This document shows positions 11,855-33,498 of a stretch of DNA of 64,000 nt, piece by piece (positions within the stretch are counted from its first letter, which is position 1; each line of letters begins with the position of its first letter). Both the position numbers and the translations under genes were made by a program. Below the pieces are notes generated by a model. That model saw only the letters and a list, made by a program, of their open reading frames with translations, made no database searches and was not told the origin of the DNA. Source of the DNA: a virus; IMG/VR virus record IMGVR_UViG_3300031962_000003, positions 4,223 to 68,222 of that record. The stretch is one strand, 5' to 3'.

Positions 11855-11878
11855 TGCACAGAATGGGGATTCTGTGCC
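11855..11878. repeat. 24-bp 9-6-9 site (motif 1)
   Basis: tGCACAGAA-tgggga-TTCTGTGCC. Confidence 0.8.
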
Positions 11879-11896
11879 ACTGGGAGATGGGTATTT

Positions 11897-12343
11897 CTAC
11901 CTGGAGGGGTGCTTTGGTGGCGCTCCGAAGTAGCCCTTGTAGGCCTTGGCGTATGCCCTGGCGGCTTCCTCTTCCGTCTCGAAGATCCCGAGCGTTAGGC
12001 GAGCTGTCCACCTTTCACCGAGACGTCCAACGCCTCGATACCTCGAGGCCGCATTCCGGTGCTTCCGTCCATTCCTGGTATTGACCGAGCGACTGGTTGG
12101 CGTGATGTTCTTCCTCTGGTTGTTCAGGCCATCCCCGTCCTCGTGGTCGACCATCCCGACTCCAGTGGTGAGTCCGAGAATGAACCGGTGGAGACGGGTC
12201 CACCGTCCGTTGACTCGACCTTTCACGTAGATCAGGCCGTTTGGCCTTGGATCCGGGAACCAGCTATACTTCGAGACGCGCTCGAAGTCCTCGTCGTCGA
12301 CGAGCGCCGACAGGCCTTCCTTTCCGACCGGCACACGTTTCAT
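11897..12343 (-). CDS. HNH endonuclease with AP2 domain
   Basis: ALVDDEDF...LHRFI...VDHEDGDGLNNQRKN; SRYRGV...LGIFETEEEAARAY. Confidence 0.85.
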   Translation of the reverse strand: MKRVPVGKEGLSALVDDEDFERVSKYSWFPDPRPNGLIYVKGRVNGRWTRLHRFILGLTTGVGMVDHEDGDGLNNQRKNITPTSRSVNTRNGRKHRNAASRYRGVGRLGERWTARLTLGIFETEEEAARAYAKAYKGYFGAPPKHPSR

Positions 12344-12462
12344 ACGTCCTCTAAAACCTCACTAGAGGCCTCTTTCCTCTCCAAGACCCGTGGTCCGGAG
12401 GCCTTTGGCGGGCCCCCAGAACGATCAGACGCTCCAGGTCCGACCTCCAGGACCTCCGCCCG

Positions 12463-12504
12463 TTAAAAGGCCGCGGGGCCGGCATCCCTGGCGGCCCCGC
12501 GGCC
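12463..12504 (-). terminator. rho-independent terminator
   Basis: 13-bp GC stem 12469-12481/12492-12504 followed by TTTTAA on the - strand. Confidence 0.7.
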
Positions 12505-12524
12505 CCACACGGAGGATCATGAGC

Positions 12525-13520
12525 CTAGAGAGGGTAGAACTGGCCGTCGAGTGGGTTCCGACGCATGACAGCCTGAGGAGCGTCGACGTTGCCGAAGAGG
12601 CCTCCAGGGACGGCCGGCTGCAGGTACTGGACCGCCCCTGGCTGGCGATCCCACCAGGGCTCTTGCCAGACCTGCCCGTCAGGTCCTACGTTATCGTCGC
12701 CGTCGTCGAAGTCCTGATCGCCGAACCACACGGGATCAGGCTGCTGCTCTTCAGCCCGGTCGAGCTCAACCTGGACCTCTTCAGCGATCCGCTCCCGAAG
12801 ATCCTGGGCGATCCCGTCGCCGGCGGGCTGGATGTAGTCCGCCAGGCCGCCCTGGGCGTTTCCGTGGCCGTAGTACGCCATATGCGAGCGCCGGCGGCGG
12901 TGGGACGACTGGAAGCTATCCAGGGCTTCCCGGTAGTTGAGCGTCGATCGAGCGATCGCGAGCTCGACCACGCCGGCCTCGACCGTTTCGAGGCTTTGGA
13001 TCTCTCGTTCCAGCTCGATTGGATCCGGAGCGTCGAACCGTACCGTTGGGTGGAGGTGACGGTGGTCTTTCGGTATGAACTGGTAGGTGTACGGGTTCGT
13101 GACATTCTCCGTCGACCGAGGCCTCTTGCCCGGGCCGTGGTACCACGGCCCGTGGGGCGACCGGTTCCCGATCCGCCGGAACTCCGCCTCCTCGCCCTCG
13201 AGCATCGCCTTCAGGACGACGACGTTGTCGGTCCCGGGGACGCCGAAGTGCGGGCCGATCGAGATGCACCAGCTGGCGACCTCGACGCCGTCCTCGAGTT
13301 CTCCGACGCGGCCGCGCCGACGGATCAGGAAGATCGTCCCGGTCAGGTTCCCGCGCGCCGGCATGTCGCCGGTGTGACAGTAGATGGCGAATCGGTACGG
13401 GTCACAGACCGACTCGAGGAGCTCCATGGCGCGACGTTCCGGCACGTCGACCTGGCCGACAGCAAGCGCAGTCCAGTAGCTGTACTGGGCGCGATCGCCC
13501 CAGCCGTTGCCACGGCGCAC
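12525..13520 (-). CDS. hypothetical protein, partner of GG-ending protein (Cys-containing N-domain)
   Basis: ERRAMELL...WCI...VPGTDNVVVLKAMLEGEEAEFRRIGN; 3 nt from the upstream gene. Confidence 0.6.
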   Translation of the reverse strand: MRRGNGWGDRAQYSYWTALAVGQVDVPERRAMELLESVCDPYRFAIYCHTGDMPARGNLTGTIFLIRRRGRVGELEDGVEVASWCISIGPHFGVPGTDNVVVLKAMLEGEEAEFRRIGNRSPHGPWYHGPGKRPRSTENVTNPYTYQFIPKDHRHLHPTVRFDAPDPIELEREIQSLETVEAGVVELAIARSTLNYREALDSFQSSHRRRRSHMAYYGHGNAQGGLADYIQPAGDGIAQDLRERIAEEVQVELDRAEEQQPDPVWFGDQDFDDGDDNVGPDGQVWQEPWWDRQPGAVQYLQPAVPGGLFGNVDAPQAVMRRNPLDGQFYPL

Positions 13521-13523
13521 GGT

Positions 13524-13985
13524 TTAGCCGCCGCCGACCTTCGAGGAAGTCGTGACGGACTTCTTCTCGTCGGCCTTGAACTCGCCGGGCTCCCGGAGGA
13601 TCTTCCAGGTCCCGTCTTTCTGGGCCTCGAAGACCATCTTGCCGTCCTTGATTTCGCCGTTGATCATCTCCTCGCACAGGAGCTTGACCTTCTTCGGCTC
13701 GCCCTCGAGCAGGACCTCGCCCTTCTTCCCCTGGAAGATGCCGGGCAGCTTCGTGACCGCGTCCGCGGCCTTCCCGTCGGCGTCGACGTTGAAGGCCTTG
13801 AAGCCGAAGAGCTGCGAGGTCTGGATCAAGCTCTTGATCAGGCCGCGCTCGACGACGCCGGTCTCCGCCCACTTGACGCGGACCGAGTCCTTCGTGAAGG
13901 ACAGCTCGGTGTGGCCGTTGTGGCCCGTGACGTTCAGCTGGACGTCGACGGCCGGCTCGGCCGCGTGATTCTGGATCGTTTCCAT
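13524..13985 (-). CDS. protein ending VGGG (ubiquitin-like C-terminus candidate)
   Basis: SD GAAAGGA; C-terminal SSKVGGG-stop. Confidence 0.65.
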   Translation of the reverse strand: METIQNHAAEPAVDVQLNVTGHNGHTELSFTKDSVRVKWAETGVVERGLIKSLIQTSQLFGFKAFNVDADGKAADAVTKLPGIFQGKKGEVLLEGEPKKVKLLCEEMINGEIKDGKMVFEAQKDGTWKILREPGEFKADEKKSVTTSSKVGGG

Positions 13986-14009
13986 GGCAGTTTCCTTTCT
14001 CTGAGTACT

Positions 14010-14387
14010 CTACCCGCCCAGTATATCATCGTTTTGAGGGGCCGGAACAGCTCCAGGAACCTCGACAGGATCAGCGACGACCCCACCATCCCCTAACCCT
14101 CCGGGCGCAGGGGGGAGCATGTACGGCGCTGGGCCGGCGGCGTACGGATTCGGGCGAGGTCTCGGCGCGGCCGTCTTCGGGTAGACCGTGTCGACCGAGA
14201 CCAGGTCGAGGATGGACTTCATTCGCATCCGGATCCGGACCCGGTCGTTCAGGTCCTTCTGGGTGATGAACTGCTGCATCAGCTCCTTCATGATCTCGGG
14301 AGTGCCGTCGACCATCTCCTGGACCTTGCTGCCGATGAGCGCCTGGGCCGCCGGCGCGGTCGCCGCTGATGCCTTTTCTTCCGTCAC
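14010..14387 (-). CDS. hypothetical protein, Pro-rich tail ending LGG
   Basis: GTGA overlap; ends DDILGG-stop. Confidence 0.55.
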   Translation of the reverse strand: MTEEKASAATAPAAQALIGSKVQEMVDGTPEIMKELMQQFITQKDLNDRVRIRMRMKSILDLVSVDTVYPKTAAPRPRPNPYAAGPAPYMLPPAPGGLGDGGVVADPVEVPGAVPAPQNDDILGG

Positions 14388-14653
14388 GGTAATCTCCCCC
14401 TGGTAAGCTGTCCGATCATATCCGTCACCACGGTCATTATCTTCGAGTCCTTCGTCAGCGTGATCTGGTCGTCGAAGTACCGATTGAAGAGGTCCCGGGC
14501 GATGTCGACCCGGCGCTCGGGGTCCGCCTCCATGAACTCGCCCTTCTGACCTTCCGAGAGGATCTCGTCGGCGACCTTGAGGCAACGCTTGTAGATCCCG
14601 GCGTAGCCGTCCAGGATCTTCGCGACTTTGTCCTCTGTCGTCTTCTCAGCCAC
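14384..14653 (-). CDS. hypothetical protein
   Basis: SD GGAGG before GTG. Confidence 0.55.
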   Translation of the reverse strand: MAEKTTEDKVAKILDGYAGIYKRCLKVADEILSEGQKGEFMEADPERRVDIARDLFNRYFDDQITLTKDSKIMTVVTDMIGQLTRGRLP

Positions 14654-14661
14654 GATTCCTC

Positions 14662-15105
14662 CTAGTCTTCTCTGATACTGGCCCAGCGCTCGAGGGAGTC
14701 TCGGAGCTCCATCGGGAGATCCGGGTTCGTTATCTTCATGGCCTGTTCGAGCGACATCCCCTGAGTCACGACCAGGAGCGCCGCGGTCACCGCCATCGAT
14801 CGATTCTGGCCGGCCGCGCAGTGGACTAGGACACGGTCAACGGCCCGGTAGAAGCCGATCGCCGCCTCGAAGCAGGCGGGCCCCGTCGGGATCGACTCCT
14901 CGATCGGGAGCATGAGCCTCGGGATCGTCGGATCGTACGGGACGGCGATCTCCCAGGCCGTGTTGATGACGCCGCCGATCAGATGCTTCTTCCAGCGACC
15001 GTCCATGCCGCAGAGGAACCTGGCGGCGGCCTGGTCGCCCTGCAGGATCTTCCCTTGTGCGTACCTCTTCACCTTGACGGGTGGCTCGGCCATGCTAGCC
15101 CTCAC
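14662..15105 (-). CDS. dual-specificity/tyrosine phosphatase family protein
   Basis: CX5R loop VLVHCAAGQNRS. Confidence 0.85.
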   Translation of the reverse strand: MRASMAEPPVKVKRYAQGKILQGDQAAARFLCGMDGRWKKHLIGGVINTAWEIAVPYDPTIPRLMLPIEESIPTGPACFEAAIGFYRAVDRVLVHCAAGQNRSMAVTAALLVVTQGMSLEQAMKITNPDLPMELRDSLERWASIRED

Positions 15106-15394
15106 TTTCCACCCCCGGTCGCTTCTCCCAACAGTCGCACAAAGTCAGAAGTGTTTCAAGCTCTTTGACCTGGAAGATCAGGCCTTCGCCGGAACAGCGC
15201 TCGCACTTCGGATCCGCCTGGCGCTTCCACCGGTCCCGCATCTCCTGCGTGATCACGATCGTGCAGCGGAAGTTCTCCGTCGACGAGATTCGCCGGGCTC
15301 TACGAGCCGGCACGAACGAGCTCCAGGGGGCCGGCTTCAGGCTGCCCTGGAAGTTCGGGAGCGGGAGCGGGAGCTGTCCGTCGTTCGGCGTCAC
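15095..15394 (-). CDS. hypothetical protein with Zn ribbon
   Basis: CERCSGEG...CDC. Confidence 0.5.
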   Translation of the reverse strand: MTPNDGQLPLPLPNFQGSLKPAPWSSFVPARRARRISSTENFRCTIVITQEMRDRWKRQADPKCERCSGEGLIFQVKELETLLTLCDCWEKRPGVESEG

Positions 15395-15969
15395 CCCGTA
15401 ATCCTCGGCTTGATGATCTGCTCGGACCGCTTCCCGGACGCGAAGATCACGACCACGTACGACCAGTTGAACATGCCGACCGCCGGGTCGATCTCCGCCC
15501 GGAGCATCCGGATCGCCTGCGCCAGGTCCGGCAGGCAGGTCGGACAGCGGTAGAACGGGTGGTCCTTGTCGCCGACCATGAGCGTCCGCGTCGACGGCTG
15601 CTGGCCGAGCGCCTTCAGCTGCTCCCGCCAGACCTGGAGACCCTTCGGGTCGTTCTTGAGAGAGTCCGGTGGCTTCTGGAGGAGCTCCGGACACTCGAAC
15701 TCGAGCTGGACGATCGGCTCCTCGAGCTGGCCCTTGCACTTCGGGCACTGGCCGACGCGGATGTCCTTGAGCATCTTCCCGGGGATGGTCTTCACCGTCC
15801 GCATCTCGTTCAGGTAGACCTCCTGGACGTCGTCCCGGTCGGCGACCTCCCGGGCGAAGTCGTTCGCCTTGTCCTGGTTGTCGTACCGGGTCATCAGTCC
15901 GTCCTTGTCGGTCGGCTGCTCGACGATCCCGTCAGCCCGGAGCATCCACACTTCGTACGAGGTCTGCAT
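15391..15969 (-). CDS. hypothetical protein (YEVW domain + Zn finger)
   Basis: SD AAGGAG; CPKC, CPTC; N-terminus resembles the adjacent gene. Confidence 0.55.
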   Translation of the reverse strand: MQTSYEVWMLRADGIVEQPTDKDGLMTRYDNQDKANDFAREVADRDDVQEVYLNEMRTVKTIPGKMLKDIRVGQCPKCKGQLEEPIVQLEFECPELLQKPPDSLKNDPKGLQVWREQLKALGQQPSTRTLMVGDKDHPFYRCPTCLPDLAQAIRMLRAEIDPAVGMFNWSYVVVIFASGKRSEQIIKPRITG

Positions 15970-15994
15970 GGCTATCGTCTCCTTCTTCTGGTCT

Positions 15995-16324
15995 CTAAAT
16001 CTCGGTCGGTGAACGCCACTCACGCTTCGGCTTCGGCTCCTTCGAAGCAGGTTCGTCACCATCGAGTTCCTCGCGCGTGACACGAGTCTTCCCGACGGCG
16101 TTCAGGCGTAGATACGGGATCCTTTTGACGACGACGACCTCCCAGTTGTCAGGCTGGTCGGCAGCGACGTTGGCGGCCGCCAGCGCATCGTTCGGGTTCT
16201 CGAAGACGCCGCCGTTGTCCTTCGCCGGGTCGATGATCCGGACCCAGTCGCGCTGCTTCGTCTCGGCGTTCAGCGCGGCCTTCTGGGCCCAGACCTCGTA
16301 GGTGTCCTGCTCGCCCTTCGCCAC
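15995..16324 (-). CDS. hypothetical protein (YEVW domain)
   Basis: SD GAGGA; paralogous to the N-terminus of 15391-15969. Confidence 0.55.
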   Translation of the reverse strand: MAKGEQDTYEVWAQKAALNAETKQRDWVRIIDPAKDNGGVFENPNDALAAANVAADQPDNWEVVVVKRIPYLRLNAVGKTRVTREELDGDEPASKEPKPKREWRSPTEI

Positions 16325-16335
16325 GGCATCCTCCT

Positions 16336-16686
16336 CTACTTCTCGGACGACCGACGACGAACAGTCGGACCCGTCGGGCCGCCGGGGGCCGGCGGAGCCT
16401 CAACGACGCTGCCGACGGGGTGCGGGTCGTCCTCGAGGAAGTCATCCTCGACGGCGATCGCCACGGGGTTCACCGAGAACTCTTCGAGGGAGATCCAGAC
16501 GAGCGGCCGGCGGTCCTCCGCGGTCGACTCGGCGGAGGCGAACAGGACCTCGTCGCCATCCTTCCGGACCGCGAGGATCGCGCCCTCCTCGTAGACGACA
16601 TCGATGATCGGCTTCCCGTCCTCGATCTTCGAGTTCTTTTTGGCACGGAAACCGATCGGACCGGCCGGCAACCAGAGCACGTCCAT
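16336..16686 (-). CDS. hypothetical protein
   Basis: SD AGGGAG before ATG. Confidence 0.55.
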   Translation of the reverse strand: MDVLWLPAGPIGFRAKKNSKIEDGKPIIDVVYEEGAILAVRKDGDEVLFASAESTAEDRRPLVWISLEEFSVNPVAIAVEDDFLEDDPHPVGSVVEAPPAPGGPTGPTVRRRSSEK

Positions 16687-16697
16687 GCGATTCTCCC

Positions 16698-16726
16698 TTG
16701 CTTTACGAAGTTTCCAGGACTAGACT
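16698..16726 (+). promoter_or_regulatory. sigma70-type promoter pointing into an intergenic structured region
   Basis: TTGCTT-N17-TAGACT. Confidence 0.6.
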
Positions 16727-16732
16727 ACCCAC

Positions 16733-16925: not shown

Positions 16926-16927
16926 TC

Positions 16928-17921: not shown

Positions 17922-17945
17922 GGCACAGAACACAGCTTCTGTGCC
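17922..17945. repeat. 24-bp 9-6-9 site (motif 1, perfect arms)
   Basis: GGCACAGAA-cacagc-TTCTGTGCC. Confidence 0.85.
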
Positions 17946-21169: not shown

Positions 21170-21472
21170 TTACAGCTCTTCGATCCGAACTGGCTCGCAG
21201 TAGAGCACCTGGGAGCCGTCCGTCTCCGCGGCCACGAAGATCTGCCCGGACGACGCGACGTTGATACTGGCGAACTCCCCTGGATTCAGGACCATCCGAG
21301 AGTTTCGGTCCTTCGTACCTTTCTTGCTCGATCCGATGTAGATCGGGCCAGTGTTGCTCTTTAGTGCGGTCACGAGAAGGCACTTCCCAGCCGGAAGAAC
21401 GACGACCGGATCCACTAGCTGAGTGGCTTTACGTTTCTTCAGCCTCTTCGAGCCGCCAGTCACTCTACTCAT
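21170..21472 (-). CDS. hypothetical beta-rich protein
   Basis: NTGPIYIG...LNPGE motif; SD GGAG. Confidence 0.55.
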   Translation of the reverse strand: MSRVTGGSKRLKKRKATQLVDPVVVLPAGKCLLVTALKSNTGPIYIGSSKKGTKDRNSRMVLNPGEFASINVASSGQIFVAAETDGSQVLYCEPVRIEEL

Positions 21473-21496
21473 CGTCTCTCCAGTGGCACTCTAGTC

Positions 21497-21772
21497 TCAT
21501 TCTATGCCTATTTGAATCGCTTTTTTAGTTTTTCTTGCCCTCTTCATCCTGTACAGGCTGGCGAACTTCCGGATCTCCTCGATCTCGATCCCCTTCAAGC
21601 AGTTGACCAGGTCGACCACCCGACGCGCGTCTCTCATGGACTGGCTGGTGTCGAAGCCGCCGAAGGCCGCGATCGTCCTTCCGCCACTCGTCCCGACGTA
21701 GGTGCAGTTCACGCTCTGCCTCGTTACGCGCCAGCGGCCAGGCGTGTGCTTCATGCCGTCCGGTTTAGCCAT
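21497..21772 (-). CDS. phage hypothetical protein (KHTPGxW family)
   Basis: MKHTPGRW...DARRVVDLVNC. Confidence 0.6.
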   Translation of the reverse strand: MAKPDGMKHTPGRWRVTRQSVNCTYVGTSGGRTIAAFGGFDTSQSMRDARRVVDLVNCLKGIEIEEIRKFASLYRMKRARKTKKAIQIGIE

Positions 21773-21775
21773 TCT

Positions 21776-21979
21776 TCACCTTTTCTGTACAACTACACGC
21801 TTTGCCGACTTAACTAAAAAGTCGTGATGCTTCTTGCAGTCATCGCATCGATGGTATGAAAATCTACCGATTTTATAACTCCACCTTGAGGCTACTCCAC
21901 ACTGCTCAATAGAAATTCCACGAAGAACGACCTGGCCGCACGGACGACCACGTTTCTTAAGGTGCTTCCAGGTTTTCAC
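21776..21979 (-). CDS. small Cys-containing protein
   Basis: GTG inside a motif-1 site; ends VVQKR in the next site. Confidence 0.5.
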   Translation of the reverse strand: MKTWKHLKKRGRPCGQVVLRGISIEQCGVASRWSYKIGRFSYHRCDDCKKHHDFLVKSAKRVVVQKR

Positions 21980-21982
21980 TCT

Positions 21983-22129
21983 TCACCTTTTCTGTGCCAA
22001 CCTACGACCGGGCTTTAGCCTCAAGCACTGACAGCAGTAGAGTCTCGTCTCCTTGTGGATAAATCCTTCTTTGCTCTTCCCCGTGACGATCCACTTTGCT
22101 TTGCAGTAGCAGTGTTTCTTGCAGAGCAC
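21983..22129 (-). CDS. 48-aa Cys-rich protein (not in ORF track)
   Basis: MLCKKHCYCK...YCCQC...LAQKR, bounded by motif-1 sites. Confidence 0.45.
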   Translation of the reverse strand: MLCKKHCYCKAKWIVTGKSKEGFIHKETRLYCCQCLRLKPGRRLAQKR

Positions 22130-22137
22130 TCTTTACC

Positions 22138-22521
22138 TCACTCTACTCTTGTCCAAAGCTCTAGTTTGTATAGCGGGATCGGTAGCTTCCGCGCTGGGGC
22201 ATACGGAGTTCCCCACGTTTCGTCGATGGTCTCGTCAGCCCATTCAACGAACCCTTCCTCCGGAACAACGACGAGGATCTCGTCGCCGATCTGAGGAGGC
22301 GGAGGCTTCTGCCCCTGGACCCATGGCTTCTCGGTGTTCGTCACGGTCGTCCGGATGATCTCCATCGTCGCCAACGTCGCGTGATCTCCGCGCACGAGCG
22401 ACCAGAACCCTCCACCGTGAGAGCAGAACTGGCGGATCTCGATCATCGACGACCAGACGAACGGCTCCTTCCGGTACTTCCCGGCCGCGCGAGGATCTCG
22501 GAAGGCCACGTAGTGCTGCAC
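22138..22521 (-). CDS. hypothetical protein
   Basis: GTG with SD GAGGT provided by the site spacer. Confidence 0.55.
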   Translation of the reverse strand: MQHYVAFRDPRAAGKYRKEPFVWSSMIEIRQFCSHGGGFWSLVRGDHATLATMEIIRTTVTNTEKPWVQGQKPPPPQIGDEILVVVPEEGFVEWADETIDETWGTPYAPARKLPIPLYKLELWTRVE

Positions 22522-22542
22522 TCTTTACCTCTTCTGTGCCAA

Positions 22543-22767
22543 CTAGGCGAACTGCTGCTCAACGACCTCTTGCCCATGCTTCTTGCCGTGGGCTCGGTAC
22601 GCATCCCTGACGGCGTAGAAATGCTCGCGGCAATACTGCTTATCCTCGTTGCCGATCATATCTGGCCGATAAACGACCAGCCGGACAACCGGCATCTTGT
22701 CGCACGTCTCTTCGGCACATTTGATCGGGTACTCTTCTAGGCGAATCATTTTCTTCTCCTTTACCAA
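22543..22767 (-). CDS. small Zn-finger protein
   Basis: CAEETC...YCREH. Confidence 0.5.
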   Translation of the reverse strand: MVKEKKMIRLEEYPIKCAEETCDKMPVVRLVVYRPDMIGNEDKQYCREHFYAVRDAYRAHGKKHGQEVVEQQFA

Positions 22768-23156
22768 ATCTCAAACCCGCCGCACTTCTTTAGGAAGTCG
22801 ACGAACTTCAGGAGGTGCGGCAACTTAATCGAATAGATCGCTGGCGTCTTCACGTCCATCCCCTGTTGGGAGAGTTGCTGCATCAGGCCAACTTCTGGTC
22901 CTGGAGAACACTCGAGGACCATTACCTGCTCACCCTTCGGCCAGTCATTCTCGACAAACTCCTGTAGAGCCATCGCGAGCCGGTCGCACTCGTCCTGGGT
23001 CTTGAGGCCGTTGCCGTCGTTGTATTCCCAGCCGTCGATCGTCAGGCCGAGGGAGAAGAGCCGATTGACGTGCTCACAAAGAGAGTGGATCGGCCGCCAA
23101 GACCAGACCGATGCATCGAAGTTGCCGCCTTTGGTCCCGGTTAGAGACATGCCCAT
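22761..23156 (-). CDS. phage hypothetical protein
   Basis: SVWSWRPI...NDG...FVDFLKKCGGFEIW; SD AAGGGAG. Confidence 0.65.
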   Translation of the reverse strand: MGMSLTGTKGGNFDASVWSWRPIHSLCEHVNRLFSLGLTIDGWEYNDGNGLKTQDECDRLAMALQEFVENDWPKGEQVMVLECSPGPEVGLMQQLSQQGMDVKTPAIYSIKLPHLLKFVDFLKKCGGFEIW

Positions 23157-23191
23157 ATAAGCTCCCTTGGCACTCAATCTGCCTTCTGTGC

Positions 23192-23488
23192 CTACGCTTT
23201 CTTGGTGTACACCGGCCGTTCCCTAAGCGCCTCCGCCGCCTTCCAAGCGGAGAGGGCGCGAGCCTCAATCTTGTCTGTCGTCGGCATCCACTTGAGCCGA
23301 CACTTGCTGTTGAGGATCAGATTCGCCATCGCCTTCGCGTAGTCGACGAGATCCTGGTCATTCTGGCAAACGATCCCGAGACCGCAATCCCCGCGACGTG
23401 CCATGAAGACCGGGATCATGATCGCCGCGTACAGCTCGACCTTATCCTCCGGAGACATCCGGATCTCTTCCTTCTTCGGCTTCTTCAT
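23192..23488 (-). CDS. hypothetical protein
   Basis: Bounded by motif-1 sites; SD AAGGGAG. Confidence 0.55.
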   Translation of the reverse strand: MKKPKKEEIRMSPEDKVELYAAIMIPVFMARRGDCGLGIVCQNDQDLVDYAKAMANLILNSKCRLKWMPTTDKIEARALSAWKAAEALRERPVYTKKA

Positions 23489-23521
23489 AGTTCTCCCTTG
23501 GCACTCAATTCGGCTTCTGTG

Positions 23522-23776
23522 TCAATTGCTGGGAACCGTTTTATCTTCGACCGTGAACGGGATCGCTTCCTTCTGAAGCTCCCTCTTCATGTCCACAAAG
23601 CAGTTTGGGTGAATGAGATCGACGTCTCTGTCGATCTGGATCTTGTGCGCCATGTCTCCAGGGACGACGCGACCGCCCTTCGGGCAGAGTGAAAACGCGC
23701 AGCCCCAGTGACCGAGGAGGTTGTACGGTGGCGCCTTGCCGTCGAACTTGAAGGTTTCGAGAATCGTTATCTTCAC
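23522..23776 (-). CDS. hypothetical protein
   Basis: GTG after GGAGG; bounded by motif-1 sites. Confidence 0.5.
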   Translation of the reverse strand: MKITILETFKFDGKAPPYNLLGHWGCAFSLCPKGGRVVPGDMAHKIQIDRDVDLIHPNCFVDMKRELQKEAIPFTVEDKTVPSN

Positions 23777-23802
23777 TCTGCCCTCCCTGGCACTCAATAG
23801 GT

Positions 23803-23994
23803 CTACTGTGCCGCCCGCTCGCGGCGCTTCTCGATCATATCGAGGCACAGCGGACAGCTCGGATGCGTGATGAAGTGGACCGCGAGCGCGACTTCCTTCG
23901 CAAACGGGTCCATGTTCAACTCGCATCCGAGGTGCTCTCCTAGGATCTTCGCAATCACCAGATACTCCTCGTGCGTCTTCTTCATGGCACTCAT
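23803..23994 (-). CDS. small hypothetical protein
   Basis: Start and stop both lie within motif-1 sites. Confidence 0.5.
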   Translation of the reverse strand: MSAMKKTHEEYLVIAKILGEHLGCELNMDPFAKEVALAVHFITHPSCPLCLDMIEKRRERAAQ

Positions 23995-24002
23995 CTCGGT
24001 TT

Positions 24003-24515
24003 CTATGCCAGCCGAGTCCCCATCTTCCGGTGGATCCGCTCCAGCACAGCCTCGTTCAGATTGAAGGATCCGTTCGGATCCGAGAGCGCCAGGCGGACCG
24101 CGCAGATCACGAGATCGGCGACGTACTTCTCGACCGACTCCTTCTGGAAGGCTTCCGACGAGCCGTGGTGGTCCGCCTCCTCGACCATGTTCTGGAGCAT
24201 TACGGCGGCCTTCAGGACGTGCTTTAGGGCGTGGTCGAAGTCCTTGTACTTCGACGGGGAGTTCTTGAACTGTTCGCTGTAGAGCTCGTCCGTCCAGAGT
24301 TTTGGGAGCTCTTTCTGAAGGATCCGGAGGAGGTTCCCGCGCTCCTTCGCTCCCATTTCGATATGCCACGCCACGTCCGAGACGCGATCGAATCCTTTCT
24401 CCGGGGTCGGGTACTTCATCCCAGCCATCTCGATCAGGAGCTCGTCGAAGAGTTCCTTACGGCCGGCAACCTTCCCGTTCTCGAACGCGCGTTCTGTGTC
24501 GTTCACCGACAGCAT
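24003..24515 (-). CDS. hypothetical protein, MazG-like helical C-domain possible
   Basis: HALKHV...VEE...VADLVICA pattern. Confidence 0.45.
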   Translation of the reverse strand: MLSVNDTERAFENGKVAGRKELFDELLIEMAGMKYPTPEKGFDRVSDVAWHIEMGAKERGNLLRILQKELPKLWTDELYSEQFKNSPSKYKDFDHALKHVLKAAVMLQNMVEEADHHGSSEAFQKESVEKYVADLVICAVRLALSDPNGSFNLNEAVLERIHRKMGTRLA

Positions 24516-27226: not shown

Positions 27227-27996
27227 CGCAGCTTCTCCATCAGCTTCGAGACCTTCTCCTCGCTCGTGTGGACGTAGATCTTCGCGAGCTCCAGGCTCGA
27301 CCAGCGGAGCTGGGTCCGGACGTAGTTCCAGTCGAAGCCGGCCTCGATCAGTCGACTGGCCCGCGTGTGCCGGAGGATGTGGATCAGGCTGGCGCGGTCC
27401 GGCTTGACGGCGTCGAGGATCTCCTCGAAGACCCGCTGCATGGTCCGGCGGGCGACTGGGAACAGGAGCTCGTCGGGCTGGAACTTCTCGACCCACTTCC
27501 GGAGCAGGCGGACGAACTCGCTCTTGTTGTCGAGGTCGACCGGCAGCTGCGGGTGGCCCTGCTTCTTCTCGGTCGGGATCCGGACGATCGACATGGACCC
27601 GTCCTTCCACTCGAGGTACGTCTTCCGGATCGAGAGGGTCTCCCCGAGCCGGCAGCCGGTCTCGAGCGTGAACCAGAGTGCCATCCGCATGTGCTCGTCC
27701 TCGAGGGCGCGGATCTCCTTCAGAGTCGTCCGGTACTCCTCGTCACCGAGGAACTTCCGGCTGTCGATCGCCGTGTTCGTCGCGGCCGACATTCCCTTGC
27801 TGTACTTCGACCGGCAGCAGCCCTCCGTGCAGGTGATCACCTTCCGGCGGCCGTCGAAGAGGACCTTGATCTTCCGCGGACACTTGTGGCTCGGCGGCGT
27901 GCAGACCTTCGCCCGGCCGCCCATGTTGTACCGGGCCAGGTAGGCCCGGCCGCAGACGAAGCAGGTCGCCTTGACGCTGTAGTCGGTCTTACTCAC
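27223..27996 (-). CDS. tyrosine recombinase with N-terminal Cys-rich (Zn) domain
   Basis: TGCRLGE (R), TEKK (K), HILRHT (HxxR), LRWSS (W), KIYVH (Y); N-terminal CFVC...C...C...CTEGCC. Confidence 0.9.
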   Translation of the reverse strand: MSKTDYSVKATCFVCGRAYLARYNMGGRAKVCTPPSHKCPRKIKVLFDGRRKVITCTEGCCRSKYSKGMSAATNTAIDSRKFLGDEEYRTTLKEIRALEDEHMRMALWFTLETGCRLGETLSIRKTYLEWKDGSMSIVRIPTEKKQGHPQLPVDLDNKSEFVRLLRKWVEKFQPDELLFPVARRTMQRVFEEILDAVKPDRASLIHILRHTRASRLIEAGFDWNYVRTQLRWSSLELAKIYVHTSEEKVSKLMEKLR

Positions 27997-28244
27997 GTCG
28001 TCAGCGTCCCCATACGGGCCTCGCCGATGCGCATCGCCAGGAGCTCGTAGAGCTCCTCGGCGCAGTGGATGTGCATCTGCATCCGGACGTCCTTCTTCGC
28101 GAGGACGAGATTGACCGTCGCGGTCACCTCGAGCGCGATCGATCCCTTCTCGACGTCCTTCGGGCAGACCAGGCACTCGCTCCCGTCCCCGAGGACGACC
28201 TTGAGCTTGTCGTTGATCATTGTCTCTTTCCTCTCCACCACCAT
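27993..28244 (-). CDS. small Zn-binding protein
   Basis: CLVC...HIHC; overlaps the recombinase start. Confidence 0.5.
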   Translation of the reverse strand: MVVERKETMINDKLKVVLGDGSECLVCPKDVEKGSIALEVTATVNLVLAKKDVRMQMHIHCAEELYELLAMRIGEARMGTLTT

Positions 28245-28318
28245 CCGACGGCGACTCCGAGCCAGAACATGATCGTACCGGTAAACGTTCCAACGAACTC
28301 GACCTCTGTTATCATCTA

Positions 28319-28342
28319 GGCACTCAAGTTCTGTTCTGTGCC
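28319..28342. repeat. motif-1 site upstream of the recombinase operon
   Basis: GGCACTCAA-gttctg-TTCTGTGCC. Confidence 0.85.
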
Positions 28343-28462: not shown

Positions 28463-28939
28463 CTAGAAGCTCACCCAGTTTCCGGCTCCGTACTTCCGGT
28501 CGAAGAACTTCTCGTACGGCTCCCACTCGCACTCGATAGATCTGGTAGGGTTCACGCGCCGATAAAAACCCCAGTGGCGCTTCTTTCCGGTCACGAGGAC
28601 AAGCGTCCAGGCTGGGCGCTCGAGGACCAGCCGATGCGCGTCTTCGGCCTTGTGTCGAACTATATTTCCAGCTCGTATACGTCTTGGCCAATCCTGAACA
28701 CCTAGGTGATCTGGGACGGAGTTTATCTCGTGGTACCCCTCCCATAGGATCAACGAGACGAAGTTCCAGGGATGATCGTGAAGCTCAATATCCTCGTCGC
28801 TCCGGAGGATGTGGTGCAGGAAGATCTTAAACCAAGGACACCGAAACAGCTTGTAGCGGACCATGTAAACGTCGTTCTCGTCAGACGAGATCACAACGTG
28901 CGGAAGGATTCTCCTTAGGATTCGGTCGATCCAGTTCAT
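28463..28939 (-). CDS. cupin-fold protein (HDHPW family)
   Basis: LHHILRSD...LHDHPW..SLILWEGY...HRL...WTL...WGF. Confidence 0.75.
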   Translation of the reverse strand: MNWIDRILRRILPHVVISSDENDVYMVRYKLFRCPWFKIFLHHILRSDEDIELHDHPWNFVSLILWEGYHEINSVPDHLGVQDWPRRIRAGNIVRHKAEDAHRLVLERPAWTLVLVTGKKRHWGFYRRVNPTRSIECEWEPYEKFFDRKYGAGNWVSF

Positions 28940-28941
28940 AG

Positions 28942-29214
28942 CTAAAACGGAATGTCCTCGTCCTCCGTACCCTTCAAATTGTCGTAGACGACCCTGACCG
29001 TTCGACGAAGCCCCCAGATGTACTTCTTTCCCCACACCTTTTTCAGTCGCTCCATCGACTCCTCCGGAACCTCGCAGTGATCGAAGCACTGGGCTTCCTT
29101 GTTGTGCGAGCCGGCCGACACACCGATCGCCTCGAGTTCCTTCTGCTCGTCGAGACGGCCGCCGATCCAGCCGATGTAGATGACTCTAGTCTTTGCCACG
29201 GTCTGACGGGTCAA
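28942..29214 (-). CDS. hypothetical protein
   Basis: Ends EDEDIPF (acidic SSB-like tail). Confidence 0.45.
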   Translation of the reverse strand: MTRQTVAKTRVIYIGWIGGRLDEQKELEAIGVSAGSHNKEAQCFDHCEVPEESMERLKKVWGKKYIWGLRRTVRVVYDNLKGTEDEDIPF

Positions 29215-29554
29215 GTTCCTTGATTCTCTCGTTCAGGTAAAAACGAGCCTTTTTTAAGTCTTGGGCGGTCTTCGTCGAATCCTTCTTCCCAGCCCGGGCG
29301 ATGTACTTGACCGTGTTCCAGAGGTACGCGTCCCGGTCGAGGCCCCAGGCCTTCAGGACTTTGATCACCTCGTAGACGGTGTCGCCGCCGTAGTGGGAAG
29401 GATGGTTTACAGCCTCTCGATCCCTATAAGCTCTCTCAAGAACCGGAGCTCCAGTCGCACCGCAACCCTTGTGGGGAGTAATGTACCCCTCTTTCGTGAG
29501 CCTGATACCGTCAGTCCCGCAGATCCCGCACTTGCCGACCTTGTGTAGAGCCAT
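29186..29554 (-). CDS. DUF3310/SaV-like protein
   Basis: VNHPSHY...NTVKYIARAGKK...DLKKARFYL. Confidence 0.8.
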   Translation of the reverse strand: MALHKVGKCGICGTDGIRLTKEGYITPHKGCGATGAPVLERAYRDREAVNHPSHYGGDTVYEVIKVLKAWGLDRDAYLWNTVKYIARAGKKDSTKTAQDLKKARFYLNERIKELDPSDRGKD

Positions 29555-29565
29555 CGCCCCTCTCC

Positions 29566-30357
29566 TTAGATCTTCGAGTTCGGAGTTACCCATTCCCCTT
29601 TTTCGTTCCGCGTGAAGTCCTGGAAGACGTTCGGCCAGCGGGCCTTCGAGATGTGGGCGACCTCGTCGAAGACGAGTCGGATCTCCACCTCGGCCGACTC
29701 CGCGGTCCGGAGCTCGACGAGGTGCCGAAGCGCCCGGAAGTTCATCGACATCCCGATCGTCGTCGCCAGGCCGATCGGCGCGAGCCGGCGCATCGCCGAG
29801 GTGATTTTCTTCTTGGTCTCGAAGTTCGTCCCGGGCTCGTCGAGGTGGAAGTGATCGGCCATCCTCAGCTGGATCTCCTCGAGGCTTCTGAAAGTCGTCT
29901 CAAAGAGGTCGACCAGGCCGGCCTCGTGCTCGATCTCCTGCGGGAGCCAGAGGCCGAGGTCCGTCAGACGGACGTACCGGAGCGACTCCTGGCTGAAGGC
30001 AGTCCCAACCCGGTGCCGGACGAGCTCGTGCGTGAAGACGCGCGAGACGTCGGCGAAGATCCAGTTCGTCTGGGAGTGCTCGAGGACCGAGCCGTGCCGG
30101 GACTTGATGATGTTCGCGAGGTAAACGTCGTTCCCCTCGCGGACCTTCTGGACGTTGGGATTCAGGCCGGGCTTGAAGGCCCTGTAGCAGACGCGTCCCA
30201 TCACTTCGACCAGCGTCTCGGCGTCGGACTGCTTTCCGTCCCGGAGGTTATCCTCCCCCCACTCCGGAGCGCCGACGTGCTCGAGGTACTGACGAAGACT
30301 TGAGTAGTCGAAGTACGTTTCGCCGACCAGGAACACTTTAGGTTGGACACGTCTCAT
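29566..30357 (-). CDS. thyX: flavin-dependent thymidylate synthase
   Basis: HGSVLEH, SRVFTHELVRHR, FSQESLRY, NFRALRH, AEVEIR. Confidence 0.95.
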   Translation of the reverse strand: MRRVQPKVFLVGETYFDYSSLRQYLEHVGAPEWGEDNLRDGKQSDAETLVEVMGRVCYRAFKPGLNPNVQKVREGNDVYLANIIKSRHGSVLEHSQTNWIFADVSRVFTHELVRHRVGTAFSQESLRYVRLTDLGLWLPQEIEHEAGLVDLFETTFRSLEEIQLRMADHFHLDEPGTNFETKKKITSAMRRLAPIGLATTIGMSMNFRALRHLVELRTAESAEVEIRLVFDEVAHISKARWPNVFQDFTRNEKGEWVTPNSKI

Positions 30358-31421: not shown

Positions 31422-31964
31422 TTAAGCCTCGCCTTTCATCGTCTCTTCGTTCAACTTCTTGACGCTGATTTCCCCTCTGGCGAGCTGGCCCAGAAGGTCG
31501 CCGCCGTGGGCGATACCGTCGTCGCGCTGGCTCCTCAGCGCGGCCCGCACCGCCAAGTCAAGGCGGTCGATCGCCTTCCCGGTCGCTGCCGGGCCTTTGT
31601 AGACCAGCGCCTTTTCGTAGAACGTGGTGTAGTAGGTTCGCCCGCGGGTCTCCGCAGGAATCGGAGTGACGTCTTTGGCGTAGGCGTCCCTATGGGACTT
31701 CGACGGGGTCAAGACTCGCCGGGTCAACGCCTGGAACGCCTCGATCAGTTCCTTCCTAATTTCGTCGTCACGAACGAAAAAGTGGGGCCAGTCCGGGACC
31801 AGCCGGAACAGAGCCCCTTCCTTGCTCTCCTCTTTGTGGTCCGCGTCCATCTTGACGGCCCTTCCCAGCGAGAGCAGCTTCGCGCATTCGTCGCAAAGGC
31901 GGTCGGCATAGCGCCAACCCTTCGCTCCGCACCCGTGGCAAGGCTTATAAGTTCCGTGATTCAT
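31422..31964 (-). CDS. hypothetical protein with N-terminal Zn finger
   Basis: CHGC...CDEC; C-terminal GDLLGQLARGEI. Confidence 0.55.
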   Translation of the reverse strand: MNHGTYKPCHGCGAKGWRYADRLCDECAKLLSLGRAVKMDADHKEESKEGALFRLVPDWPHFFVRDDEIRKELIEAFQALTRRVLTPSKSHRDAYAKDVTPIPAETRGRTYYTTFYEKALVYKGPAATGKAIDRLDLAVRAALRSQRDDGIAHGGDLLGQLARGEISVKKLNEETMKGEA

Positions 31965-31976
31965 GGTATAGCTCTT

Positions 31977-32411
31977 CTATGCCCCGTAAAGTTTCTCGTA
32001 GTCCGTCCACTTTACGAACCGTGTCCCGCCGTCGACCCAGAATCCCCACGTCTTGCGCTTCGGCCCGGTGAACACCAGCGTCCAGACCGGGCGACGGCTA
32101 CACTCCCGGATCGAATGGCGGTCGGTAGAACTCTTCCAGTTCCACCAGTGGACCTTCTTCACCCCGGCTGGGGTGTCCTCGACGTAGGAGCCCCACAGGA
32201 CGACGGACAGGAAGCTCCAGGGATGGTCGTGCATGTCCCGCTGGCGGTCTGGCCGGTAGATCCGGTGCAGCATGATCTGGAACCATGGCGTCACGATGAT
32301 CCGGAGCCGGTCGAGGTACTCGTCGCCCGGCGTCCCGATGATGAACCGGTCGAAGAGATCCCACCGCTTCGGCGGCTTGTAGTTCCAGGGCTTTGCTTCT
32401 GTCTTCGCCAT
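31977..32411 (-). CDS. cupin-fold protein (HDHPW family), paralogue of 28463-28939
   Basis: LHRIYRPD...MHDHPWSFLSVVLWGSY...WTLVFTG...WGF. Confidence 0.75.
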   Translation of the reverse strand: MAKTEAKPWNYKPPKRWDLFDRFIIGTPGDEYLDRLRIIVTPWFQIMLHRIYRPDRQRDMHDHPWSFLSVVLWGSYVEDTPAGVKKVHWWNWKSSTDRHSIRECSRRPVWTLVFTGPKRKTWGFWVDGGTRFVKWTDYEKLYGA

Positions 32412-32416
32412 AGCAT

Positions 32417-32635
32417 TCAATCCTCGTCGTAGAATCCGACGATCTTGCAGAGCTTGGCGACGAACTCTGGGGCCTCAATCTGGGGGGCGTCCCGCTGCAT
32501 TACGGACTCCTCGCCGCCGATCTTGTGCCGCTTTACGAAATCTCGGACCAGCCTAAGAAGCTCGCTGCCCCTCTCGAAATCTGCGCGTTCGTCCTCGGCA
32601 TCCTTCGAGTCGCGGTCGCCGTCATCGAATCCCAT
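32417..32635 (-). CDS. hypothetical protein
   Basis: FVKRHKI..ESV.Q.D...A.EFV...C.IVG pattern. Confidence 0.5.
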   Translation of the reverse strand: MGFDDGDRDSKDAEDERADFERGSELLRLVRDFVKRHKIGGEESVMQRDAPQIEAPEFVAKLCKIVGFYDED

Positions 32636-32663
32636 TTCTTTACCCTTCCGGATAGCAATCATC

Positions 32664-33065
32664 TCACTTCTTGAAAATCGCGCAGGACGGGGAGTGTTGC
32701 CCGGCTCCATCCATTGCGGGAACAAAGCAATCGCACTCCGGCTTGGCTTTTGGCTTTTCTACGACCTTGTGATTGCAGTAGTGATTCCGTACCTTTCCGC
32801 AATGGCACGGTTCCCCGCAGTCGCAAACTGACTTTTCAGCGCATTCACAAATTGTTGAGTCCTTGTCGTGCTCGTCGCACTTCGGCCCGGCCACGCCACG
32901 ATCCAAAGCCTTCCATCTGTTAGAGAAAGTCAGGCAGGCACAACAGCCGTCGCACTTCCGGACAGCGGCCTGATACTCGCCAATCTTCAGCTCCAACTCC
33001 CTCACCTTAGCGCGGAGCATGTCGATTCGGGCCCCAGGCGTCATTAGTTCGTCCTGTTCGCTCAT
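32664..33065 (-). CDS. Cys-rich coiled-coil protein
   Basis: ATGA overlap; many Cys. Confidence 0.5.
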   Translation of the reverse strand: MSEQDELMTPGARIDMLRAKVRELELKIGEYQAAVRKCDGCCACLTFSNRWKALDRGVAGPKCDEHDKDSTICECAEKSVCDCGEPCHCGKVRNHYCNHKVVEKPKAKPECDCFVPAMDGAGQHSPSCAIFKK

Positions 33066-33373
33066 GCGCCATCTTTCTTTTCCAAGAAGTCCCTGATCGC
33101 AGAGGCCCACCGACAGTCTTCATTCTCAATTCGCAGGAGCATTTCCTTGTAGCGGGTCAGGTCTTGGATCTTGAGTTCCAACTTTTCAGCCTTGTCGATC
33201 CATTCAGCGTGGCAGACAGCGCAGGCACTGCCTGCGTGCTCCGGAGGATGATTGCAGGTGAACGGACCGCGGAGCCGATCGATCTCCTCGATCAGCTCGT
33301 CCATCCAGGTGGACTTCGGGCCGTCGACGGCTGCAGCCATCTGCCGAAGCTCTTCCAGGCGAGCAGGGGTCAT
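33062..33373 (-). CDS. Ead/Ea22-like small phage protein
   Basis: MTPARLEEL...ELIEEIDRLR. Confidence 0.5.
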   Translation of the reverse strand: MTPARLEELRQMAAAVDGPKSTWMDELIEEIDRLRGPFTCNHPPEHAGSACAVCHAEWIDKAEKLELKIQDLTRYKEMLLRIENEDCRWASAIRDFLEKKDGA

Positions 33374-33474
33374 AGCCTCACCTTAGATTTACAGGGGCGA
33401 GGGCTCGGAACCCTACGCCCCACGAACACCAGCGGCCCGGGACTTCCCGGCCGGTCGGCATAACTGTCGTCCAT

Positions 33475-33498
33475 GGCACTAAATCACAGATGAGTGCC
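33475..33498. repeat. motif-1 variant site
   Basis: GGCACTAAA-tcacag-ATGAGTGCC, overlapping the stop of 33484-33762. Confidence 0.65.

Follow-up and report, generated by a model that had tools for sequence, protein, structure and literature searches.

What are the short repeated sites that punctuate the early genes of a soil phage, and why do they stay in place while the genes between them are replaced? This question is raised by a 64,000-nucleotide stretch of viral DNA, referred to here as the window, which comprises bases 4223-68222 of the 68,222-bp viral record IMGVR_UViG_3300031962_000003, rated 94% complete. In the window, 24-bp sites consisting of two 9-bp arms around a 6-bp spacer lie at the junctions of successive small genes, and a tyrosine recombinase is encoded nearby. 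The original prediction, made from the sequence of the window, proposed that the sites delimit a virus-encoded gene-cassette array, and named multiple operators of a dimeric repressor as the serious alternative. The comparisons described below support the cassette-array reading; a role for the recombinase is plausible, to judge from the sequence.

A two-armed site of fixed length

The predicted pattern, with up to three mismatches allowed, matches the window 13 times, against a mean of 0.20 and a maximum of 2 in 100 shuffled sequences, none of which reached 13. These matches correspond to 11 places, because two palindromes score on both strands, and they include every full site and symmetric variant that had been listed. 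The match is exact at 21485, 23169, 23986 and 28319, and has one mismatch at 22517, 23500 and 23789, two at 21975, 17922 and 33475, and three at 11855. The spacing of the arms is fixed: exact GGCAC-Nk-GTGCC occurs five times in the window at k = 14 and not once at any of the other 12 spacings between k = 8 and 20, while relatives of the phage contain 8, 2, 7 and 0 exact copies at k = 14 and at most two at any other spacing. A reversed-pattern control gave no match in five of five genomes.

The local genes run on the minus strand. Read in the sense of transcription, the site therefore consists of an A arm, GGCAYAGAA, a 6-base spacer and a B arm, WWGAGTGCC; the predicted sites are thus real, and only the strand on which they had been written is corrected here. 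Each genome has about 11-14 of them, in short intergenic gaps and in a single orientation relative to transcription. The preceding gene has its stop codon either inside the A arm or 0-5 nt ahead of it. At sites 23169, 23500 and 23789 a ribosome-binding site (e.g., AAGGGAG) directly follows the B arm; at 22517, 21975, 22125 and 21768 the spacer itself is the ribosome-binding site (GAGGTA or AAGGTG), and the start codon lies in the B arm (GTG, or ATG at 21768). Three combinations of arms occur, namely A-B, which forms the arrays, A-A, in the perfect palindromes at 11855 and 17922, and B-B, at 33475, whose spacer CTGTGA recurs in the relatives G002 and G004 with other arms. The partial copies noticed earlier are also genuine: those at 21768 and 22125 keep a spacer and right arm next to a degenerate left arm, the spacers (AAGGTG and GAGGTA) being those of 21975 and 22517, and those at 31960 and 40693 are a lone left arm and a lone right arm, respectively.

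Ordered centres around replaced genes

A scan of the viral collection with exact arms and a free spacer returned 13 stretches on 10 contigs, six of which are relatives of the window phage (G001-G004, G006 and G007). The contigs L011, L014, L017 and L018, with one site each and a GC content of 0.39-0.48, were dropped as unrelated or chance matches. Searches based on the recombinase brought in three more contigs (L055, L060 and L065), and a metagenome scan with the 23-base core of the GGCAGA site at 23169 found 14 exact loci, i.e., four known genomes and 10 new loci, two of which overlap one another. All sequences compared are metagenome assemblies. The genes common to the relatives have ~65-85% DNA identity, across only 2-12 kb per genome. 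The statistics given below count related genomes as independent, and the p-values are therefore nominal.

In eight of eight genomes, the sites detected from their arms give the same order of spacers, namely GACCTA, GCCGAA, GGCAGA, GAGGTA and AAGGTG, with GCCGAA missing in G006; AGGCTG comes next in four genomes. All 43 in-array sites of these genomes, found from the arms alone, carry one of these six canonical spacers. Differences from the class majority occur at none of 258 spacer positions and at 53 of 774 arm positions (Fisher's test, 2.5e-7), and when the three spacers that do not serve as ribosome-binding sites are taken alone, the counts are 0/138 and 28/414 (4.5e-4). The arm positions that adjoin the spacer (7, 8, 16 and 17) are among the most variable, and since these inner positions vary beside an invariant spacer, its conservation is not simply an effect of longest identity. 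Where a neighbouring site is visible, eight of nine new metagenome loci show the canonical order, and L041 has GAAATA.

Outside the sites, the sequences are unrelated. Pairwise identity stays at the random level (~0.25) up to the site edge, reaches 0.74-1.0 in the arms, and is back at the random level ~6 bases past the site; that the spacers are 1.0 identical in this analysis is a consequence of how the sites were matched. Consecutive sites are 168 to 1971 bp apart, and the segments between them have tblastx similarity in 2 of 465 pairs, both from the close pair G006 and G007, the other 463 being unrelated. Where a site contains a start codon, conserved sequence gives way to variable sequence within an open reading frame (ORF), exactly at the site edge. 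The adjacency of the flanking genes is kept in any other genome at 1 of 60 junctions with a site, compared with 191 of 525 site-free junctions (seven genomes; 4e-10). When only those junctions are counted whose two gene families co-occur in another genome, the figures are 1/10 with a site and 191/240 without (9.6e-6). These data demonstrate that the A-B sites are discrete, ordered and strongly conserved joints between replaceable single-gene cassettes.

The cassettes of the window are ten small ORFs between the sites (Table 1). None of them matched a family in a Pfam scan (0/9 for the ORFs within 21497-23985 and 0/1 for 21170-21472). Many cassette proteins of the window (21776-23985) and of its relatives are 48-130 amino acids (aa) long, have paired cysteines that resemble a zinc ribbon, and match no family. 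We also noted that a virion-arm (plus-strand) protein has an early-arm paralogue (window 17980-18795 and 58064-58651), and that in G004 (6450-7085) and L055 (~15400-15780) this paralogue is an array cassette.

Individual rearrangements

Several differences between close relatives can be followed base by base. The loci L042 and L048 are 99.8% identical upstream and 96.7% identical downstream of an additional 365 bp that L042 carries between two full GGCAGA sites. The left copy equals the single site of L048, and the right copy, on the insert side, has the variant A arm GGTGCAGAA; the insert contains a small Cys-rich ORF and a degenerate GAGG(G)TA site. This difference is the signature that insertion of a circle through one site, or the reverse excision, would leave. 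Compared with G007, G006 has a 132-bp insertion that begins exactly after the last base of the GACCTA site, and has lost 405 bp from after base 8 of the GCCGAA A arm, i.e., the spacer, the B arm and one cassette. The inserted segment (G006 6734-6865, against G007 14815) gives the downstream protein an in-frame, Cys-rich N-terminal extension of 45 aa, read from the GTG in the site.

Cassettes are also found in different slots. The 98-aa cassette at 23192-23488 of the window lies between GCCGAA and GGCAGA, and in L047 a homologue with 80% identity occupies the slot from GGCAGA to GAGGTA; likewise, a capsid-like cassette occupies the GACCTA slot in G004 and the GAGGTA slot in L055. G002 and L055 are 95% identical from exactly the B arm of a site at which their spacers differ (ATCGGG vs GCATTG). 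Only one public run, a soil metagenome that may be the source of the window, contains its full sequence, and a second soil run contains a relative whose homology to the window ends at 24007, within the site 23986-24009; in this relative, 97 bases abutting site 28319 are replaced by 11. On a larger scale, G004 has, compared with G001 and G002, an inverted and reordered 12-kb early block (11181-23161 in oriented coordinates) that runs from the HNH-like to the SprT-like gene. This block is flanked by two sites, with the spacers GGGCCA and GGACAA.

Insertions, deletions, replacements and rearrangements thus end at A-B sites, although not all breakpoints do so. The proposal that the array captures or shuffles accessory genes is borne out by the fixed order of the sites, the replacement of the genes between them, the insertion with a duplicated site, the slot moves and the broken adjacencies. 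Gene order among the relatives is not constant, as the original prediction had anticipated, and breakpoints lie at or in the sites, though not without exception. Its argument that variable spacers disfavour exchange is reversed by these comparisons: each spacer is invariant across relatives, and partners with the same spacer would be available in co-infecting relatives.

A conserved Xer-like recombinase

The tyrosine recombinase gene is intact, as had been stated, and site 28319 lies upstream of the two-gene unit to which it belongs. The most likely start codon is the GTG at 27996, because the relatives align only from there. Among 14 members of the family, with ~25-61% identity to the first sequence of the alignment, R, K, HxxR and Y of the catalytic domain do not vary, and the W position is nearly invariant. 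The protein matches Pfam Phage_integrase (6.7e-17), and all Xer and integron-integrase family models scored far below their cutoffs. The best Xer model was XerA (51.9 bits, cutoff 220), i.e., the protein is not an orthologue of XerC, XerD, XerA, XerH or XerS, and the two integron-integrase models gave 28.5 bits (cutoff 265) and 22.7 bits (cutoff 435), which places it outside the IntI family. For one family member modelled with AlphaFold (mean pLDDT 86.5), the nearest folds are XerA, XerH, IntI4 and Cre, with IntI4 ranked ninth, behind XerA and XerH. These four enzymes act on short two-armed sites with centres of 6-8 bp.

The family is rare, with 19 representatives below 1e-30 among 1.84 billion, and its distant full-length members are single metagenome proteins; for one of these homologues, P0012, no relative was found in viral contigs, and one search with the family alignment returned only the same lineage. 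In the family members P0001-P0027, the N-terminus has the motif series CxxC ... CTxxxHxC ... CxxxCC where tyrosine recombinases usually have a core-binding domain. All 10 contigs of the phage group that were searched encode the recombinase, namely seven of seven genomes and L055, L060 and L065. The gene has a site ~30 bp upstream in L060, and elsewhere it is 1-9 kb from the array. A recombinase profile search of the contigs of species genomes found no integrated relative, and lysogeny is therefore not an evident alternative role for the enzyme.

Palindromic sites, promoters and candidate regulators

The A-A sites differ from the array sites in their surroundings. At the junction that follows the HNH-like gene, five of five genomes have a site and, 8-18 bp on, a strong sigma-70-like promoter, and the spacers of these A-A sites differ between genomes. 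The predicted position of the 11855 copy just upstream of a -35 box is correct, the distance to the promoter being 16 bp. A promoter scan of 8000-27900 found only three promoter-like sites, none of them inside an array site; in G002, one array site is followed by a promoter. Three other promoter readings were rejected by inspection or proved partial: a sigma-54 -24/-12 promoter, for which the second element would have to be 5 bp closer; a -35/-10 pair, whose gap is ~9 bp; and the B arm as a TANNNT -10 hexamer, which it resembles only in TAGAGT variants. The A-A copies beside promoters look like terminator or operator elements, in a terminator-promoter layout similar to that of PeSL motifs, which are described as composites of a sigma-70 promoter and a stable stem-loop that recombine by homology (PMC2839356, PMC4122927).

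The layout of palindrome, AT-rich stretch and near-consensus promoter is conserved upstream of the SprT-like or DUF932 gene (window 11809-11878; G001 38876, G003 21805, G004 23138 and G006 22688, in oriented coordinates), with TTGACA or TTGACT, a gap of 16-18 bp, and TATACT, TAGAAT or TATAAT. Near-consensus promoters in a phage of 62% GC may hint at the promoter type of the host. The gene next to the A-A site 11855 on its upstream side (11897-12343) codes for a protein that resembles HNH endonucleases (phrog_99, 5e-24).

Scans of the conserved small early proteins against Pfam, NCBIfam and PHROG returned only a weak helix-turn-helix and the HNH-like nuclease. The helix-turn-helix protein (8771-9085, 104 aa; HTH_24, 6.5e-5, with LacI-type and Cro-like matches) is conserved in four genomes and is the only DNA-binding candidate that we found besides the recombinase. 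A small conserved protein at 17585-17794 had no family match in the scans and, by inspection of its sequence, no sign of DNA binding.

Proposed exchange between matching centres and competing explanations

Our tentative preference is for site-specific exchange between sites with the same spacer, carried out by the Xer-like recombinase of the phage, over exchange driven by homology. A lineage of soil phages would then share a gene-cassette array whose fixed joints, the A-B sites, are coded by address, each with the common arms and a private 6-bp centre. A recombinase dimer would bind the arms and exchange strands across the centre; we infer that crossover would take place at the spacer borders and would require identical centres. 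As the centres within one genome differ, neighbouring joints could not delete the genes between them, and as the same centre has the same rank in relatives, two co-infecting phages could swap the segment between two joints, which would amount to recombinase-mediated cassette exchange in nature. Insertion of a circle with a single joint would likewise be possible and would leave that joint duplicated. This proposal is suggested by the 9-6-9 form, the invariant centre, the mutually different centres and the uniform orientation, which are together what a simple tyrosine recombinase acting on same-centre sites would call for, and further by the duplicated-site insertion and by a conserved Xer-like enzyme with no evident role in lysogeny. 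A fuller version, in which soil phages practise natural cassette exchange with a minimal Xer-like recombinase with a Cys/His-rich, possibly zinc-binding N-terminus, 24-bp sites whose incompatible centres serve as addresses and guard against self-deletion, and slot-by-slot swapping of early genes, is possible, though we would put it forward with some reserve.

A number of observations weigh against this proposal. None of the results ties the recombinase to the sites, and its distance from the nearest site or array ranges from ~30 bp to 9 kb, with no fixed arrangement. Distant relatives recognised by their primase (G013-G015) have neither sites nor recombinase, so that the co-occurrence of the two is confounded by common descent; G011, a 45%-complete fragment of the lineage, likewise shows neither. 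The same cassette occurs between spacers that differ on both sides (the window vs L047, and L055 vs G004). Such slot moves argue against strict same-spacer exchange, because one step cannot produce them, and indicate that centre identity is not absolute. Copies of a spacer and B arm exist without an A arm, and conservation is in part translational, since three spacers, together with the B arm, also provide a ribosome-binding site and a start codon. Some breakpoints lie elsewhere: one end of the indel that separates G006 from G007 is away from any site, L039 and L043 diverge inside a cassette, and a G001 cassette has an 88%-identical copy in L055 outside the array and without a site. Finally, the A-A copies, with their drifting spacers and adjacent promoters, look regulatory.

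Several of these observations would be expected if the sites were instead expression elements of the PeSL kind, i.e., half of a terminator-derived hairpin joined to a translation start, at which homologous or microhomology recombination, or template switching, takes place between co-infecting relatives. The sites would serve as crossover points because they are the only sequences common to otherwise unrelated cassettes; the AAA_24 protein listed in Table 1 may help, and the recombinase would have another role, e.g., in integration or multimer resolution. Sak4-type single-strand annealing proteins belong to the AAA_24 family, which makes this protein a candidate enzyme for homology-driven exchange. 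The slot moves keep the resident spacers, as expected of crossovers inside the arms; the spacer and B arm recur as a translation-start module that overlaps the translation signals; the A-A copies with their AT-rich stretch and strong promoter have the PeSL layout in five of five genomes; some breakpoints are away from sites; and there is a precedent in T4-type phages (PMC2839356, PMC4122927). Against this explanation, 24 bases are very short for homologous exchange, and homology alone explains neither a two-armed 9-6-9 design at one fixed spacing nor an invariant spacer beside variable adjoining arm positions. The array sites, moreover, have no promoter, except for the one followed by a promoter in G002, and fold weakly (-1 to -7.3 kcal/mol). 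We consider such homology-driven crossover doubtful, but a serious contender.

That the sites are operators or stoperators, as the original prediction allowed, is unlikely. Here, a dimeric or two-domain phage regulator would bind all of the sites, controlling promoters at the A-A copies and blocking or pacing transcription at the A-B copies within operons, and gene turnover would be the ordinary mosaicism of a hyperplastic region, with breakpoints that coincide with the sites because both lie at gene boundaries. The single orientation, the short intergenic gaps and the number per genome are reminiscent of the stoperators of Cluster A mycobacteriophages (PMC9283540), the A-A copies lie 8-18 bp upstream of -35 boxes, and a protein with a weak helix-turn-helix match is encoded at 8771-9085. 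For the A-A copies by promoters, which look like terminators or operators, this idea may hold; the array sites do not fit it, because a dimeric regulator would not normally read the spacer, and in these sites no part is better conserved than the spacer, which is different at each site. Ordinary mosaicism would not keep six sites ordered and intact in eight genomes while replacing everything between them, nor would it place the border between conserved and variable sequence inside an ORF at the exact edge of the start-codon sites. In addition, the distance from site to promoter varies from 8 to 18 bp, and the Pfam, NCBIfam and PHROG scans found no conserved candidate regulator beside the sites. 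An element that acts in the transcript, by forming a hairpin or a binding motif for a protein and so coupling or repressing the translation of the following gene or directing mRNA processing, would agree with the co-orientation with transcription, with the stop codon 0-5 nt before or inside the A arm and the abutting or included ribosome-binding site and start, and with the strong folds of the A-A copies (-14.2 and -12.2 kcal/mol). The A-B sites, however, are sequence motifs and not structures. In a set of 71 sites, pair 1-24 deviates 21 times without compensation, twice with compensation and three times as a wobble; C.A mismatches occur 11 times at pair 5-20, and A.A and G.G predominate at pairs 6-19 and 7-18; two of six A-B sites fold no better than shuffles, and there are no Rfam matches in 10000-35000. 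We regard an RNA-level role as very unlikely for the array, and like the operator it would explain the orientation and not the invariant private centres or their order around replaced genes. Chance repeats or an assembly artefact, which the exclusive use of metagenome assemblies might bring to mind, can be practically dismissed: no shuffled sequence and no reversed pattern reproduces the sites, the same series recurs in eight viral genomes and 10 further metagenome loci, the soil run with the full window sequence has the array on a single 67.7-kb contig with an even depth of 35.9, and sites within one genome share only their 9-bp arms, too short to mislead an assembler.

Comparison with known systems

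The array appears to work most like PeSL cassettes and like integrons or pdif modules, and yet it departs from the defining features of each. PeSL motifs are reported to flank orphan genes (ORFans) in the hyperplastic regions of T4-type phages and to mediate indels, replacements and mini-circles (PMC2839356, PMC4122927). As in these accounts, the array has a short repeat between the stop codon of a small unknown gene and the next ribosome-binding site, concentrated where the early region varies most; the motif, next to ORFans, marks the ends of insertions, deletions and replacements; and integration through a circular intermediate would fit the duplicated-site insertion of L042. The array sites differ from PeSLs in having no sigma-70-like promoter, a strict two-armed 9-6-9 form and weak folds, the A-A copies alone reaching stem-loop energies (-14.2 and -12.2 kcal/mol, against -1 to -7.3 kcal/mol for the A-B copies). 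Their private centres, invariant and ordered across relatives, have no counterpart in the PeSL accounts consulted, which describe no such addressing.

Parts of integrons have been reported in phages (PMC9892861). The array shares with integrons co-oriented, mostly single promoterless ORFs of very diverse content, recombination-type sites and a tyrosine recombinase of its own. It differs in that the recombinase scores far below IntI models, the sites are 24 bp long and not long folded attC hairpins, with no compensatory changes, no attI-like site is fixed beside the recombinase gene, and the joints have fixed ranks where integrons insert at one end. The pdif sites of plasmids have an 11-6-11 form, are served by two host Xer proteins (XerC and XerD), and alternate in orientation around modules; the array has 9-bp arms, sites that all point the same way, single small phage genes and, as candidate enzyme, one phage-encoded protein with a Cys/His-rich N-terminus. 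Common to the array and the pdif/dif modules of Acinetobacter plasmids are two different arms, a 6-bp centre, many copies that bound shuffled modules and a proposed Xer-type chemistry (PMC6449649, PMC13141974, PMC7399989). The common arms, the six mutually different centres per array and the identity of each centre at the same rank in up to eight genomes resemble heterospecific recombinase-mediated cassette exchange. In its engineered form, lox or FRT sites with different centres do not recombine with one another, and same-centre sites on two molecules exchange the segment between them. That system is a laboratory design with Cre or Flp and 13-8-13 sites, and the phage array is known here from its sequence.

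Stoperators are 13-14 bp long, nearly identical to one another and bound by a monomeric immunity repressor. The array sites each have an invariant centre of their own, mark gene replacement and have no repressor identified in our scans. They share with the stoperators of Cluster A mycobacteriophages many asymmetric intergenic sites in one orientation and a promoter-proximal operator (PMC9283540). The titles and abstracts of the literature that we found describe no phage junction sites with private, ordered and invariant centres. Start-associated sequences (SAS/ESAS), for instance, are a single 13-bp motif without private centres, with no ordered conservation around swapped genes reported. Those of Cluster K mycobacteriophages have in common with the array a conserved motif that contains a ribosome-binding site and lies immediately upstream of many gene starts (PMC3203893).

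For the evolution of phages, the array is an unusually clean case of linkers: six joints keep their rank and private centres at ~65-85% identity of shared genes, with nearly everything between them replaced. Phage genomes are mosaics, and an old modular theory proposed conserved linkers between exchangeable modules, of which clear examples are few. If the recombinase is responsible, the array would be a viral counterpart of integrons, with addressed exchange rather than insertion at one end, and its naturally orthogonal sites and ~260-aa enzyme could be of use in genome engineering. If homology is responsible, the PeSL principle would extend from T4-type phages to an unrelated high-GC soil lineage, and very short conserved elements could organise gene flow. 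Either way, the cassettes are a concentrated pool of fast-turning early genes for proteins of 48-131 aa without a known family. Functions in host takeover and anti-defence are usually found among early phage genes of this kind.

Features of the window

Table 1. Sites, promoter and genes of the window discussed in the text; spacers are given in the sense of transcription.
Feature	Position	Strand	Remarks
A-A palindrome	11855..11878	.	Between HNH-like gene and DUF932 gene; -12.2 kcal/mol
Sigma-70-like promoter TTGACA-18-TATACT	11809..11838	-	16 bp downstream of site 11855; 11/12 consensus matches
A-A perfect palindrome, 9-bp arms	17922..17945	.	Stable hairpin, then ATTTTCC; terminator-like; -14.2 kcal/mol, z -4.35
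Ten small cassette ORFs, 48-131 aa, between sites	21170..23985	-	Several with paired Cys motifs
Cassette ORFs 1-5	23803-23985, 23522-23776, 23192-23488, 22761-23156, 22543-22749	-	
Cassette ORFs 6-10	22138-22521, 21983-22129, 21776-21979, 21497-21772, 21170-21472	-	
A-B site, spacer ACCGAG	23986..24009	-	First of window array; 0 mismatches; upstream stop in A arm; ATG directly after
A-B site, spacer GACCTA	23789..23812	-	Series member 1; first in series in 8/8 genomes
A-B site, spacer GCCGAA	23500..23523	-	Series member 2; in 7/8 genomes, missing in G006
A-B site, spacer GGCAGA	23169..23192	-	Series member 3; 23-base core exact in 14 metagenome loci
A-B site, spacer GAGGTA	22517..22540	-	Series member 4; spacer is ribosome-binding site; GTG of next gene in B arm
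Second GAGGTA copy, spacer and B arm	22125..22148	-	A arm degenerate; translation start of 48-aa ORF
A-B site, spacer AAGGTG	21975..21998	-	Series member 5; spacer is ribosome-binding site; GTG start in B arm
Second AAGGTG copy	21768..21791	-	Degenerate A arm TGTACAGAA; ATG start in B arm
A-B site, spacer TGAGAC	21485..21508	-	Last of window array
83-aa ORF	27993..28244	-	From ORF list; between site 28319 and recombinase gene, 4-base overlap with start of the latter
Tyrosine recombinase, ~258 aa	27223..27996	-	Intact; GTG start at 27996; Cys/His-rich N-terminal ~80 aa and Xer-like catalytic domain, R..K..HxxR..W..Y
A-B site, spacer CAGAAC	28319..28342	-	Upstream of two-gene unit ending in recombinase
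Lone A arm	31960..31983	-	GGCATAGAA, without B arm
B-B site, spacer CTGTGA	33475..33498	.	Upstream stop TGA inside spacer, then ATG
Lone B arm	40693..40701	-	TAGAGTGCC, just before start of gene 40210-40665
AAA_24 protein	44199..45440	-	PF13479, 1.1e-21; in 4/4 near-complete genomes

The window phage is a ~68-kb uncultured soil phage with a GC content of ~0.56-0.70. Genes were called with a heuristic of our own, based on GC at third codon positions (GC3); in this selection of ORFs, the genes from ~8 to 48.6 kb are on the minus strand and those of the flanks on the plus strand. No match was found among cultured phages when 20000-30000 was compared with the phage collection by megablast, and a tblastn search of cultured phages with the recombinase gave only six weak matches, of 25-29% identity. 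Matches of the primase among cultured phages were all below 60% identity, the listed ones having 24-32%.

The minus-strand early arm encodes a DEAD/ResIII-type helicase, the AAA_24 protein, a D5-type primase-helicase, a glycosyltransferase and the tyrosine recombinase, as well as ThyX and a methyltransferase. A dual-specificity phosphatase-like protein, ThyX and a nucleotide-kinase-like protein are encoded in this arm, together with several glycosyl- and methyltransferases (window 14662-15105, 29186-30357 and 37297-39057). In relatives, a beta-keto acid cleavage enzyme and a hexapeptide transferase are also encoded (G001 18152-19336 and 24325-25892). This set of sugar, methyl and nucleotide enzymes may point to a modification of nucleotides or of DNA.

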